Positions 19,561-55,648 of a stretch of DNA of 64,000 nucleotides are shown here, piece by piece (within the stretch, counting starts at the first letter, position 1; each line of letters begins with the position of its first letter). Source of the stretch: Eledone cirrhosa (Eukaryota); the NCBI GenBank assembly GCA_964016885.1, contig OZ024741.1:231012001-231076000 (forward strand). Reading direction: 5' to 3'. The notes under the pieces are model-generated. The model was not told the DNA's origin. It searched no databases and saw nothing but the letters and a program-made list of their open reading frames with translations. The translations under genes were made by a program, and so were the position numbers.

Positions 19561-19755
19561 TATAACGAAGGAGGTGCGGTAAGGAACCAGATCTACCATA
19601 ACGCACCAGAGTACTCAATACTTAGGATAGTAGAGTGGGTATTAGGAAAGTATTTGACCCTGACGGCAGAGCTCAAGTCGATTCGACGGCTATTTCTGGA
19701 CTTGTCCAAAAATAGCCTTCGAAACGGCTTGAGCTCTGCCGTCGGGGGCAAACGT
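19561..19755. mobile_element. Truncated fold-back copy of the 23411-24834 HHR repeat family
   Basis: 19561-19710 matches 23411-23551. 19657-19747 is a hairpin made of two inverted 3' halves of the ribozyme (GAAACGGCTTGAGCTCTGCCGTC). Flanked by (TA)n on both sides. Confidence 0.75.
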
Positions 19756-20737
19756 TTTCCTATATATATATATATATATTCAATCAAATGCGAATCCTAC
19801 AAAGTGAATCCTACAAATGTCGATATATAAATTACTGCTGCCATCATTATCCAATACCAGCATTTCTGAAAATACTGCTTTATATGGTCAAATTAACATT
19901 TAACGAAAATGATCAAGGAGATGAGTAAAAATCAACCAAGAAGATTGAATGAATCCTTTCCACTACGTGATGCTAACCAGGCAGTATTTTACTAAATCCA
20001 TATGCCAGCTATGTGTTGGAGGAATAATATCAAAACCTACTCGGGGTATATCACACGTTGAACAACGCAATAGGTGTCTCCTGATGTCATATCTATTACA
20101 TAATATATTCTACTGAAATATATATAACAGTAACAATGTAATCAATTAAATTATGTAATATTAAAATACACTGATTTCTCCTTCATTGTATATCGTATAT
20201 ATTTATATATTCTATTACATGTTCCAACAGAAATGATGTGGCCATGATGAGATACAGCCATTGACATATATTATTTAAACAATTACAAACACCTAGAAGC
20301 AGAAAGAATCAGTGTTATTAGGTTTACGCATTTGTTGAAAGAGAGTAAAAGAGAGCGAAGAATAAACGTATTGGAGATTAGTCCTACATGTGAGTAAAGT
20401 TGTATATTAGAAAAGAGTAAAGAAAAGGAATACGAAGGAGAAAGTGGAGGAAGATAAACGAGGAGAGAACATCCCGAAAGACTGGAGTATTGAACAGTTA
20501 AAAATTATCTGAAGTCTGAGTCATCCGGTGGTGAATAGTGGCGGGTAGATTTCTGGGTCAGAAGCACGTATATGTGCACGTAAATATAATATTTAATATA
20601 AAAACGTATTTGGTAATTACTTTAATGAATAATCTGCTTCATTATATTTAACACAATAGGATTTTATACACATGCTTATTTGAAAACATCTTTCTAAGAC
20701 GTATGGAAAATATTGGTTTTATACTGCATATTATAAT

Positions 20738-20992
20738 AATTTACTGTATTTTACGCTAAATTTCCAATTTTTTATATTGTTTTTGTAAAAAACGATGTTT
20801 TTCATATGCACACACACACGCACACGCACGCGCACACACACATACACACACACACACACACACACACACACACACATACATATATATATATATGCGTGTG
20901 TGTGTATGTGCGTGTGTGTGCGCGTATGAAAAACATCGTTTTTTACAAAAACAATATAAAAAATTGGAAACTTAGCGCAAAATACAGTAATA
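20738..20992. repeat. Fold-back palindrome: ~68-bp unique arms around (CA)n-(TA)n-(TG)n
   Basis: ttactgtattttacgctaaatttccaattttttatattgtttttgtaaaaaacgatgtttttcata is inverted at 20926-20990. Confidence 0.85.
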
Positions 20993-21542
20993 TATACAGT
21001 AATATATACATATATATGCATATATACATGCACACACACATACATAAGTTTTAAGGTGGCAAAACTTAAATTCCTTGCTGCGCTGTTTTCCTAACGATAT
21101 ATCATTATATGCATACAATTTTTTCATTTGAATTATTGATTCTCTGGACAAACATCGAAATGAAGTTTTTCACTGCCCTTCTTCAGAATATAGTTAGAAA
21201 TAGACGATAAATAGAAAGAAAAGCCATGCGTTGAGACAGGATCTCGAAATCATGGTCGTGGCTACAGAGCCGGCGATGACCGTGGATCGGGAGTAGGGTG
21301 TACAGAGTTTGGTGTGGTTTGGTTGGGAGGAAATGAAATCAAGTAAGGAGAGGGCGTCAGAGAGTTGGAAAAATATGAAAGTAGAGAGGGTGTGGCGAGT
21401 GTAATTAATATATATATATATATATATATATATATATATATATATATATATATATATATATATATATATATTATCAAGGTTTAGCAAATAATGAAAAAGT
21501 TTCAATATAAATTTTAAAAAATTGACTTTACCTACTATAGTT

Positions 21543-21625
21543 ACATTTACCGATCGGTTTCGAATCTCAAAAATAAACGGAGACCATACGGCCTTCGTTG
21601 CAAAGAAAGATTCTCGTCAGAAGGT
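21543..21625 (-). ncRNA. Type I hammerhead ribozyme (family A, copy 1)
   Basis: Same fold as 22264-22346 with one stem I mismatch (AATGT). Confidence 0.75.
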
Positions 21626-22025
21626 TCTTTTCATTCGAAGAATATAAAATTCTTGAATTTAAATTACGAACTAGTGCTATCCAAAACTGTTCCCGAGATG
21701 AGAGTGAATGAAGTGGAATCAATTTTTTCAAGGGCCGAAGTAAAGATAGAGGCAGAGGGAGGTAGGTCAAATCGGCCGCCACTATCACTAGCAGCAGTCG
21801 GAACGACCAAATTTTTTCTCAACATAGAGGAGGATGGTAATAATAGGATATGTGTTCCTTCACGCACAAGGCGCTAAGGGACGCATGTATTGTCCAACCA
21901 AATGCCAATGTGGTTCAATGGCAGGTTAATAAATTAACGAGCCAGAACATATATAATCAAGGTTTAGCAAATAATGAAAAGGTTTCAAAATAAATATTAA
22001 AAAATTGACTTTACCTACTATAGTT

Positions 22026-22108
22026 ACCTTTACCGATCGGTTTCGAATCTCAAACATAAACGGAGACCATACGGCCTTCGTTGCAAAGAAAGATTCTCGT
22101 CAGAAGGT
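22026..22108 (-). ncRNA. Type I hammerhead ribozyme (family A, copy 2)
   Basis: ACCTT CTGACGA GAATCT..AGATTC GAAAC CGATCG GTA AAGGT on the minus strand. Confidence 0.85.
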
Positions 22109-53720: not shown

Positions 53721-54754
53721 ATATATATATATATATATATAATATATAGAAATGACTTCTACTGTTTCATTTGAAGGAAATCATTAGGAAAGCCGACTGC
53801 TAATGTGTTCTGGTGGTATTTATACATTTTCTCGTGGTAGGGAAAGGTGGCGATCGGGATGAGTGGAGGTCATTGGCTGATGGATTTAAAGAAAGGGGAT
53901 TCGTTGAAAAAACTATACTTAAAGAAAAAATATACTTAGATAAAATACAGGGGTATACAAAGGCAGGCACTCCTTTCTTTTCACGGTTCAATTATGCTTA
54001 GAGACAAAAGAAGTGCCTATATTAATATGCTGTCTACAGAATAGTCAGGTCTTTACAATAACACGCTGACACACGTGCACACACACACACACACACACAC
54101 ACAGGCACACCTACATGTTTAAATATGCATACATAAATACAAACATACATATATATATGTACACATACACACACACACACACACACACACAGACACACAC
54201 ACAAATATATATCATTATCTGTAAAATGCAGATTGTTGTTGTTGTGTGTGTGCATGTTCCATGTTTATACATCTGCACAATTTCAAACCGATTCAACTCA
54301 AAGTCTGTAAGAATGTTGTAAATGGTCGAACGTAGGTTGACGACTATTTATTTCATTCAAACTCATCCACAAATACGGAAATAATCGATAAAACTAAATA
54401 CATGATACTTGACCCCTCTAATTCAATCAGATTTTCTCTCTCTACTCACCTTAAAATTCGATAAAACTACATACATGCTTACAAACTTCCTTTAGGAACG
54501 CCGAAGAGAGAGACAAGAGAGGGAGAGGGAGAGAGAGAGAGAAAGTTTGTTTTTGAGTGTGGAACGGTCAAACATTTATTTACTTCAATGACAAAGAGAA
54601 CTTATTACATTTCATACGAAACAACAATTCTTCAAAAACAACAGATAAATGTATTCAATAACAAAAAAATAGCGATAAATCTGTTTTAAAACCTCTCAAC
54701 GAACGTGGAAGAGTGGAAGAAAGAAGTCTCAGTTTATTTACTATACACAATAAT

Positions 54755-54940
54755 ATCCTCTATGAGGTCACTAAACCTGCTAGAAACAGCAGCTAACTCT
54801 CCCCCATATCACACCACTCCCTACTGTCTTAAATTTAGAAAACACATATCCTCTATGAGGTCACTAAACCTGCTATAACCAGCAGCTAACTCTCCACCAT
54901 ATCACACCACTCCCTACTGTCTTAAATTTAGAAAACACAC
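54755..54940 (+). repeat. 92-bp tandem duplication of a SINE-like fragment
   Basis: tcctctatgaggtcactaaacctgcta...ctactgtcttaaatttagaaaacaca occurs twice. Confidence 0.85.
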
Positions 54941-55178
54941 ATTAGACAACCATGCAGAACAACTCCATCGCAGCTCTGTTGTTCGGCTGGCATCGTCTAC
55001 GCGCGTGTTGCGCAATTACTGTGAAACCATAAAAATTCAACACTTCTTTGCACGGAGATAATATCCATAGGCGAAACTACAATTGTCCAGGTCTGCAATT
55101 CATTCACCCAGTGCCTGGCATGCAAAAAAAGTGCTGCCATAAAATGGGTGGTGCAACCTAACTTTGGTAACTTACTGA

Positions 55179-55207
55179 CCCCGAGCAACGCCGGGCTTTA
55201 ATGCTAG
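55179..55207 (+). mobile_element. Helitron 3' terminus
   Basis: CCCCGAGCAACGCCGGG hairpin plus CTAG|T, same as the element at 12058. Confidence 0.7.
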
Positions 55208-55220
55208 TATATATATATGT

Positions 55221-55648
55221 ATTATAAAATAACAGGAGGCTGGACTGGTGTAATTCCTTAAATGGTTTATTATACTATGATCATTTCAATGACCTTGTTC
55301 AGTATGAATCCGGTGACATCATTAGGTATTCGAAATATAACAAAGGAATATAATAGTCAAAATCCATGGGGCTGAAAAATCAGAGACATGAGGGTGACCG
55401 AACATTTAGCACTTCTACCTCGGTCGGCCGCCCTCATGTGGTAGACCGAGGTAGAAGTGCTAAATGTTCGGTCGCCCTCATGTCTCTGATTTTTCAGCCC
55501 CATGGATTTTGTCTATTATATTCCTTTGTTATATTTCGAATACCTGATGATGTCACCGGATTCATACTGAACAAGGTCATTGAAATGATCATAGTATAAT
55601 AAATCTTTTAAGGAATTACACCAGTCCAGCCTCCTTTTATTTTATAAT
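55221..55648. mobile_element. ~430-bp palindromic HHR cassette
   Basis: Arms ~55221-55405 and 55443-55648 are near-perfect inverses, each with an outward-facing HHR. Confidence 0.85.
55540..55597 (+). ncRNA. Type I hammerhead (family J)
   Basis: ATAC CTGATGA [imperfect stem II] GAAA-TGATCA-TA GTAT AATAAA. The mirror copy at 55272-55329 has CTAATGA. Confidence 0.65.

Follow-up and report, generated by a model that had tools for sequence, protein, structure and literature searches.

Head-to-head hammerhead cassettes in Eledone cirrhosa combine a long and a short 3' end and may arise when both sides of a cut in (TA)n prime reverse transcription

Eight inverted cassettes were confirmed in a 64,000-nucleotide stretch of Eledone cirrhosa DNA (assembly GCA_964016885.1, contig OZ024741.1, positions 231,012,001 to 231,076,000; hereafter the window). 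In all eight, a type I hammerhead or its homologue lies on the minus strand in the left arm and on the plus strand in the right arm, as established by self-BLAST, structural scans and an alignment of family C. The cassettes (A1, B, A2, D, C1, F, C2 and H) represent six families; under random polarity the two-sided probability of eight out of eight is p=0.008, and that of six out of six families p=0.03. This outward polarity is real but already known for Penelope-like elements (PLEs), which typically sit in (TA)n as inverted, 5'-truncated copies joined head-to-head, with a tail on one side only (PMC3846280, PMC8557442, PMC4209133). A sequence-only reading of the window had named inverted 5' pLTRs as known for Penelope, and published work indeed gives head-to-head as the arrangement usually seen (PMC3846280). 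The same reading took the polarity for a mechanistic clue; taken alone it offers nothing new in this respect, because synthesis from a target 3'-OH by any route, or cDNA fold-back, yields head-to-head arms. Polarity alone, being the described PLE arrangement, thus changes nothing, and the useful remainder is mechanistic. What the window adds is the pairing of one long and one short 3' end in a cassette and the presence of non-nested arms in B and C1. We put at roughly even the chance that the cassettes are inverted-pair insertions of PLEs and non-coding hammerhead repeats in which both ends of a cut (TA)n started a cDNA.

No hammerhead family appeared among the 150 listed of 278 Rfam matches (E up to 5), all 150 being microsatellite-driven miRNA, snoRNA or sRNA matches below the gathering score, and our own structural scans were therefore used. 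They returned 19 motifs scoring at least 7, against 0–1 in each of five shuffled windows. The strict scans, in which stem III length was capped, missed D, and the next one gave two ambiguous D candidates; later scans settled the choice, a comparable candidate occurring in none of 60 shuffles of a D unit. The sequence-only reading had found D on a strand chosen by the polarity rule, a circular case, and D was later recovered by a blind scan of both strands. A CTGACGA at 28138(-) in D was ruled out as a hammerhead core, as it is present in a single copy and lacks stems.

Cassette A1 (19565..19761) has a left arm at 19565-19702 (minus, long 3' end) and a right arm at 19704-19761 (plus, short 3' end), which diverge by 15% and make a near-perfect turn within the hammerhead stem II loop. 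Each arm holds only the 3' half of the hammerhead, and since no complete hammerhead is present the polarity of A1 rests on its homology to A2. Cassette B (21472..22530), built of a 483-bp tandem unit, has predicted hammerhead cores at 21620(-), 22103(-) and 22269(+); its left arm of 655 nt has the short end and its right arm of 404 nt the long end, and its junction at 22126/22127 shows zero microhomology. Cassette A2 (23414..24835) carries predicted U3-A8 hammerheads at 23594(-) and 24733(+), and its long-ended left arm (23414-24263) contains the short-ended right arm (24264-24835), with 100% identity over 571 bp. In cassette D (27222..29135; 557-bp tandem unit), the short-ended left arm of 869 nt is nested in the long-ended right arm of 1045 nt, and the junction has 1 nt of microhomology. 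The hammerhead-like fold of D has the core TTGATAT (27532(-), 28187(+), 28744(+)), where each of the four copies aligned has U in place of A9, together with a weak stem II, an 8-bp stem I and a long stem III.

Cassette C1 spans 34381..36612, with cores at 34716(-) and 35179(+). The sequence-only reading had its polarity right but placed it at 34378-35390; its right arm (35134-35390 plus 36452-36612; 418 nt, long end) is broken by cassette F, and the left arm (753 nt, short end) diverges from it by 7.9%, with a few extra TA between the arms. Cassette F (35392..36448) sits in the internal (TA)n of that right arm and has predicted U3-A8 hammerheads at 35549(-) and 36130(+), a left arm of 252 nt (short end) nested in a right arm of 803 nt (long end), and 2 extra letters at the junction. 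Cassette C2 (51741..53718; cores 52025(-), 52794(+) and 53470(+)) has a long-ended left arm of 1051 nt and a short-ended right arm of 927 nt with an internal jump at 52963. Cassette H (55221..55790) consists of arms at 55221-55425 and 55444-55648 with cores at 55325(-), bearing one change, and 55544(+); its right arm probably extends to about 55790.

The remaining two of the ten divergent pairs in the sequence-only reading are not cassettes of this kind. The two hammerheads of pair 30467/32315 share no BLAST similarity and belong to unrelated elements: a solo element (X1 of the window; 30431..30830, minus, core 30583, right boundary approximate) and a weak hammerhead with a 3-bp stem I at 32318-32417(+), which fits the rule and was left out of the count. 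The sole inverted repeat nearby (X2, 31281..32197, arms 31281-31529 and 31933-32197) contains neither, the weak hammerhead lying past its right arm. The strands of pair 39340/43630 are as claimed, but 42422..42623 (plus), between the two copies, is older host DNA of a tandem duplication, 79% identical to its paralogue at 32575-32771, and the copies may be two separate insertions. G-left (39338..42421, minus) is a 5'-truncated, frameshifted Penelope-like element with hammerhead core 39436, and G-right (42760..43735, plus) is an inverted partial copy, diverged by 9.5%, with core 43583 and the remainder of the hammerhead deleted, inside a 1256-bp stretch missing from the paralogue. Arm divergence was rejected as a separator of G from true cassettes, since the G value falls between those of C1 and A1.

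These two pairs, with host DNA between the arms in G, suit the reading that many pairs are independent solo insertions lying side by side in TA-rich DNA, the polarity being chance combined with selection by the reader. At least five hammerhead-bearing solo elements are present in the window, tail-to-tail neighbours across (TA)n also occur (B-right/A2-left and A2-right/E), and one joint among those listed for family A is tail-to-tail. This explanation, which we regard as improbable, is largely refuted for the eight cassettes, whose arms are of the same family and adjoin with 0–18 extra letters and without target DNA, are 97–100% alike in B, A2, D, F and H, and follow the polarity without exception, D having passed the blind scan.

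The claim that every palindromic cassette obeys the rule was too broad, as three more palindromes in the window lack a hammerhead. One of them, at 33882-34079, which the paralogue lacks, originated within a LINE-like fragment and is oriented tail-to-tail relative to the LINE-like reading frame. Such palindromes would be expected if, after insertion, hairpins in (TA)n had seeded fold-back inversions through host DNA repair, independent of retroelement machinery. We give this very little weight: the LINE-like palindrome has the opposite polarity, and host repair would not respect fixed element ends, which are seen for family A in public runs.

All seven cassettes that could be checked consist of one long and one short 3' end. 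Both cassettes of family A, and both of family C, use the same two ends, with the sides swapped in C. By coordinates, the long end extends beyond the short one by about 52–57 (C), 78 (A), 81 (D), 113 (B) and 161 (F) nt. No arm in the window begins at its hammerhead cleavage site. Outer ends adjoin (TA)n or TA-rich tracts in 15 of 16 cases, the sixteenth being the right end of H, which probably lies further out. The sequence-only reading had proposed junction microhomologies and empty sites as checks: the junctions show 0–1 nt of microhomology, or else a small number of added or templated nucleotides, and the paralogous site of C1+F (45652..45742) is a plain (TA)n tract.

The two ends recur outside the window. 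With 17,825 contigs from one run, family A is highly abundant, and the same ends are found across four public runs, the long (TA)n loose ends at 23417/23424 being listed for runs X1, X5 and X16 (1146+1373 reads in X16) and the short one at 23491 for all four (3356 reads in run X16). Eleven strand-switch joints were listed for other family A copies, ten of them simplest as head-to-head and one as tail-to-tail, in a table that carries no direction and in which the opposite reading lands on 23599-23600, another common read end, in 4/11 rows; 23497 is also an alignment break, and two of the larger rows have a single start. Joints 23510 and 23513 lie close to the hammerhead cleavage site at 23511, a possible lead to a link between 5' ends and cleavage. 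In raw reads no longer than 150 nt, a joint at 23497/23551 (side 61) is as expected if the short-ended arm barely overlapped its partner. These data also bear on whether the palindromes are library or assembly artefacts, produced by fold-back chimeras or polishing. The perfect identity of the A2 arms would suit an artefact, as would the absence of the A2 junction from the joints listed for family A. The other arm pairs, though, differ by 1.6–15% in substitutions with few gaps, inverted arms stop at the fixed short end of their family instead of running into flank, F is nested inside C1, and family A strand-switch joints occur in Logan contigs (run X1) as well as in raw reads of another study (run X16), so that an artefact is hardly credible.

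A more serious competitor is fold-back, in which one cDNA starting from the long site self-primes at its 3' end and copies back, cutting or joining of the copy then taking place at the short (tail) site and later central deletions making the arms uneven. The long/short pairing follows directly from it; the two arms of A1, and those of H, reverse within about a base of each other in near-perfect turns, and the nested arms of A2, D and F are likewise as it predicts. Long palindromes are unstable at their centre, which bears on such later deletions. Head-to-head junctions of PLEs have been explained in print by self-priming (PMC3846280), and cDNA snap-back has been observed for R2 (PMC11371274). 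Plain fold-back, in turn, cannot make B and C1, because their short-ended arm is longer than the long-ended one; these two would need a second event, as probably would C2, which is nested only if one extra event is assumed. B is young, with 2.4% between its arms, yet non-nested, and the scant junction microhomology is less than self-priming would favour. A shared-substitution test of arm origin in B and D was uninformative, nearly all differences being private. Taken together, fold-back is a reading with perhaps one chance in three of being right, and two-ended priming, in which each target end uses one of two fixed sites on the RNA and which we hold at about an even chance, is favoured over fold-back with later deletion.

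In two-ended priming, a PLE protein with reverse transcriptase and GIY-YIG domains, probably a dimer, would cut both strands of (TA)n, as suggested by the flanking sequence, by the paralogous site that lacks the insertion and by in-vitro experiments in the literature. Of the two target 3'-OH ends, one would prime on the element RNA at its long start site, and the second would use another fixed position some 50–160 nt upstream; each cDNA would stop independently, consistent with the unequal, non-nested arms, and host end-joining would presumably seal the two cDNA ends at the junctions described. The RNA-sense 3' ends would then point outward because both cDNAs begin at the flanks. In vitro, a PLE protein from Anolis cuts the two strands of its target and extends them, is predicted to dimerize, and starts reverse transcription at two internal sites bounding the genomic tail (PMC11167929). 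The proposal of the sequence-only reading that both break ends in (TA)n prime is thus favoured, through B, C1 and this protein; its wording "on the RNA 3' end" gives way to two fixed start sites, one of each per cassette. It had also let the two cDNAs join or one fold back, of which joining is favoured by the non-nested B and C1, while fold-back still fits A1, H, A2, D and F. Against two-ended priming, A2, D and F are nested and A1 and H make near-perfect turns, whereas independent stops would seldom coincide; in addition, the centre of H bears a short, snap-back-like templated insertion, and the tails of about 52–161 nt exceed the published 30–40 bp.

The coding link is provided by two elements. 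Solo element E (25131..27135, minus), 5'-truncated and Penelope-like, has its hammerhead (core 25223) on the strand of a putative GIY-YIG-bearing frame (26330-27133), so that hammerhead sense is coding sense; this frame matches PF01541 at E=0.014 (16.1 bits, under the 22.6 cut-off), and its Atlas hits score 0.96, with GIY-YIG in 18% of the third cluster. G-left likewise has hammerhead and reading frames on the minus strand. Its putative reverse transcriptase fragment (41852-42421(-)) contains YRDD and has a first Atlas hit of 0.97 with HTH_animal in 49% of members; the Pfam search of this fragment gave no match, nor did the frameshifted endonuclease region match GIY-YIG. Families A, B, C, D, F and H show no BLAST link to E or G within the window, and none of the tests run linked them to a mobilising protein. 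It is nevertheless likely that PLE proteins mobilise the non-coding hammerhead repeats, and the same insertion signature on these repeats is structural evidence that such proteins may insert retrozyme-like RNAs.

The origin of tandem and inverted PLE structures has been called undefined (PMC8557442). We tentatively propose, at somewhat less than even odds, that PLE integration is a fixed-site twin priming, in which the two ends of a broken (TA)n tract are each primed by one RT-endonuclease dimer at set positions, two in number, on a single RNA, non-coding retrozyme-like repeats entering the genome in this way as well. If true, a single step would account for both the inverted pLTR and the one-sided tail, and PLE inverted repeats would stem mainly from fixed-site twin priming instead of self-priming. 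The literature searched, which covered few subscription papers, contained no statement of a two-ended priming model for Penelope, and one may be published. The abundance and two sharp 3' ends of family A mean that counts of nesting and of long/short pairing would separate two-ended priming from fold-back.

Twin-primed L1 segments are usually non-overlapping. Twin priming of L1 was reportedly described by Ostertag and Kazazian in 2001. Cassettes resemble the products of L1 twin priming and R2 snap-back in having inverted cDNA segments whose RNA 3' ends face away from each other (PMC10191854, bioRxiv 10.1101/2024.12.14.628481, PMC11371274), but they lack poly(A), their second start site is fixed and their arms overlap widely in sequence, near-disjoint arms being suggested solely by some family A joints in public runs. 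With metazoan non-LTR retrozymes (PMC7229834; bioRxiv 10.64898/2026.07.22.740005) families B, C, D and F share tandem units that are non-coding and contain a type I hammerhead, the motifs of B and C recurring in successive units, D having a variant core and F being only a partial tandem. Their units of 433 (C), 483 (B), 557 (D) and 586 (F) bp, compared with retrozyme monomers of about 300 bp (PMC7229834), are mostly in partial tandems and carry the PLE insertion signature; a word search of the accessible parts of both sources found no description of inverted arms. The minimal type I hammerheads of PLE pLTRs are alike in fold, palindromic helix III and the U3-A8 core variant, and in Schistosoma hammerhead pairs lie 100–700 bp apart on opposite strands (PMC4209133), whereas several motifs here have long stem II loops and D combines a long stem III with U at position 9. 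PAc, the Anolis Poseidon PLE, agrees in vitro in the cutting and extension of both target strands, in AT-rich targets and in two RT start sites bounding the tail; in the accessible text a strand bias of the start site is unreported and the result is not tied to inverted pairs (PMC11167929). In arrangement the cassettes resemble insertions of EN+ PLEs (PMC3846280; PMC8557442), with an inverted 5'-truncated copy adjoining the 5' end, usually head-to-head, partial tandems, one-end extension, (TA)n targets and no discernible TSD. The window shows a terminal type I hammerhead on the coding strand (E, G-left), head-to-head arms in 8/8, a one-sided tail in 7/7 and (TA)n targets, the cassettes being mostly short and non-coding and their tails longer than those of EN+ PLEs. 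The published EN+ PLE mechanism is self-priming or endonuclease resolution, and B and C1 argue against plain fold-back.

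The window is AT-rich, with (TA)n arrays throughout, and a BLAST of it against itself returned 58 inverted matches and 51 direct ones. Since an Rfam scan yielded microsatellite-driven matches only, among the 150 of 278 matches listed, structural scans for type I hammerhead ribozymes (HHRs) were written. The final scan returned 19 motifs scoring ≥7, whereas five shuffled windows contained 0–1 each. Two of the 19 (20680 and 30308), with a stem I of just 3 bp and without repeat context, were set aside. Further solo HHR-like motifs, whose stems are weak or whose core has one change, are found on the minus strand at 12189–12317, 63865–64000, 39040 and 37168.

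The sequence-only reading had proposed ten inverted pairs with their RNA 3′ ends pointing outward. Eight are real inverted cassettes: A1 (19565–19761), B (21472–22530), A2 (23414–24835), D (27222–29135), C1 (34381–36612), F (35392–36448), C2 (51741–53718) and H (from 55221 to at least 55649, probably to about 55790). In all eight, left arms carry the HHR sense on the minus strand and right arms on the plus strand (p=0.008 under random polarity; p=0.03 for six of six families), although the A1 arms contain HHR 3′ halves only. HHR sense can be equated with RNA sense because reading frames and HHRs share a strand in two elements, a solo Penelope-like element (PLE) at 25131–27135(−) with a GIY-YIG-like frame, and the G-left copy (39338–42421(−)) with an RT-like frame. 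The protein identity of these frames is drawn from Atlas look-alikes together with a YRDD motif, the Pfam match to GIY-YIG being weak (E=0.014, under the cut-off) and Pfam giving no match for RT. The strands searched for D had been chosen by the polarity rule itself, a circular case, and a blind scan of both strands recovered D on the predicted strands. Its fold has an 8-bp stem I, a long stem III, a weak stem II and U at position 9; this U occurs in all D copies (27532, 28187 and 28744). U at position 9 and the weak stem II point to a variant or dead ribozyme. C1 is inverted as claimed, but its right limit had been misplaced, since it runs to 36612 with F inside, inserted into an internal (TA)n of C1. 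The two remaining pairs were not borne out as cassettes. The motifs at 30467 and 32315 sit in unrelated elements, and the sole inverted repeat there (31281–31529/31933–32197) contains neither. The copies at 39340 and 43630 do differ in the length of their 3′ ends, one being shorter, but the stretch between G-left and G-right (42760–43735(+)), 42422–42623, is similar to older host DNA that belongs to a tandem duplication; two neighbouring insertions are the simplest reading. The eight cassettes are a real, ordinary PLE signature, and the earlier count was slightly too high.

The tandem segmental duplication (32575–38487/42422–48172, 75–83% alike) supplies empty sites for C1 with F, where the paralogue has plain (TA)n (45652–45742), and for G-right, which lies within a 1256-bp stretch that the paralogue lacks. 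Across long (TA)n at 22530–23413 (883 bp) and 24836–25130 (295 bp), members of different families adjoin tail-to-tail, and insertions therefore pile up in the same tracts. Palindromes without HHR are also present, at 20741–20990 (centre (CA)n(TA)n(TG)n), 51016–51101 and 33882–34079. With respect to a LINE-like frame, whose motifs suggest an RTE-like family, the last is arranged tail-to-tail; it is missing at its paralogue (44953–45043) and is a fold-back with opposite polarity. A PIF1-like helicase fragment at 13816–14232(−) (PF05970, E=2e-14) is possibly a Helitron remnant.

Each of the seven checkable cassettes pairs a long 3′ end with a short one, and H, which has a single copy, probably does too. 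In families A and C the two end positions are identical in both cassettes of each family; A1, A2 and C2 have the long end on the left, C1 on the right. For B, D and F, the short end falls at a TA-like site inside the unit, and the two ends are about 52–57 (C), 78 (A), 81 (D), 113 (B) and 161 nt (F) apart.

Polarity had been offered as a mechanistic clue. It does not discriminate, since priming from a target 3′-OH places the RNA 3′ end of any cDNA next to the flank, and two-ended priming and fold-back both predict head-to-head arms. Arm geometry does, because a fold-back copy must fall inside the primary arm. Nested arms in A2, D and F and symmetric ones in A1 and H fit fold-back with later central deletion, a mechanism we regard as possible but somewhat doubtful: B and C1 have short-ended arms (655 and 753 nt, respectively) that exceed the long-ended ones (404 and 418 nt), and C2 requires one extra event to be nested. 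The non-nested B and C1, with a PLE protein described in PMC11167929 as cutting and extending both strands, with two start sites internal to the RNA, favour two-ended priming, to which we give about an even chance; both target ends would prime cDNA at fixed sites, producing head-to-head arms. Both mechanisms may operate. Junction microhomology is 0 nt in B and 1 nt in D, with 1–2 extra letters in C2 and F, extra TA in C1 and a templated insert in H, whose centre (55426–55443) is a short copy of 55470–55487, apparently a snap-back or template-jump trace. The D-left and C2-right arms start within 1–2 nt of the HHR core (28090 and 52792), which may reflect RT stalling or chance. The cassettes are unlikely to be artefacts, their arms differing by substitutions with few gaps and ending at fixed element ends, although A2, whose arms show 0 differences in 571 bp, is a less certain case.

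Four of 18 listed public runs, in which ≤53% of the words from the searched stretch occur and which may come from other individuals or species, were aligned to the A2 left arm (23414–24263). Copies of family A are numerous (17,825 contigs in X1; 22,837 reads in X16) and heavily 5′-truncated. Depth drops roughly 10- to 30-fold above 23560 (zone 23544–23560) in all four runs, and most copies appear to be cut off inside the HHR stem II loop, as in A1. The A2 spacer is part of the left arm, because the element is continuous across 24063 in run copies. Among the (TA)n-flanked loose ends listed, 23417/23424 (X1, X5 and X16) and 23491 (four of four runs) coincide with the two end sites of family A in the window. 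At least 11 strand-switch joints were found; among the 11 listed, which do not include A2's own junction, one (23415/23491) is necessarily tail-to-tail, long end to short end. The other ten join 23453–23513 to 23538–23555, the zone of depth collapse, and are read most simply as head-to-head, the side length falling on a known 3′ end in five. Their support is modest, since the joint table carries no direction, four rows also fit pieces reaching 23599–23600, position 23497 coincides with a break in the alignment and, of the large rows, two have a single start.

PMC3846280 describes an adjacent inverted pLTR, in agreement with the claim that inverted pLTRs are known for Penelope, with a tail on the 3′ end of one, and reports head-to-head as the commonest arrangement, vs tail-to-tail, explained by self-priming. 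PMC8557442 describes an inverted 5′-truncated copy, a one-sided tail and (TA)n targets, and calls the mechanism undefined; PMC4209133 reports a palindromic helix III, a U3-A8 core, also confirmed in PMC3088659, and HHR pairs on opposite strands. Inverted stretches of cDNA are likewise described for L1 (twin priming) and R2 (snap-back). Inverted arms in the cassette sense did not appear in the parts available of two retrozyme papers (PMC7229834; bioRxiv 10.64898/2026.07.22.740005), nor did the literature searched, with most subscription papers outside its scope, yield any two-ended account of how PLE inverted repeats form. The polarity rule is already known for PLEs; the long/short pairing and the non-nested arms add a modest, testable clue to the mechanism.
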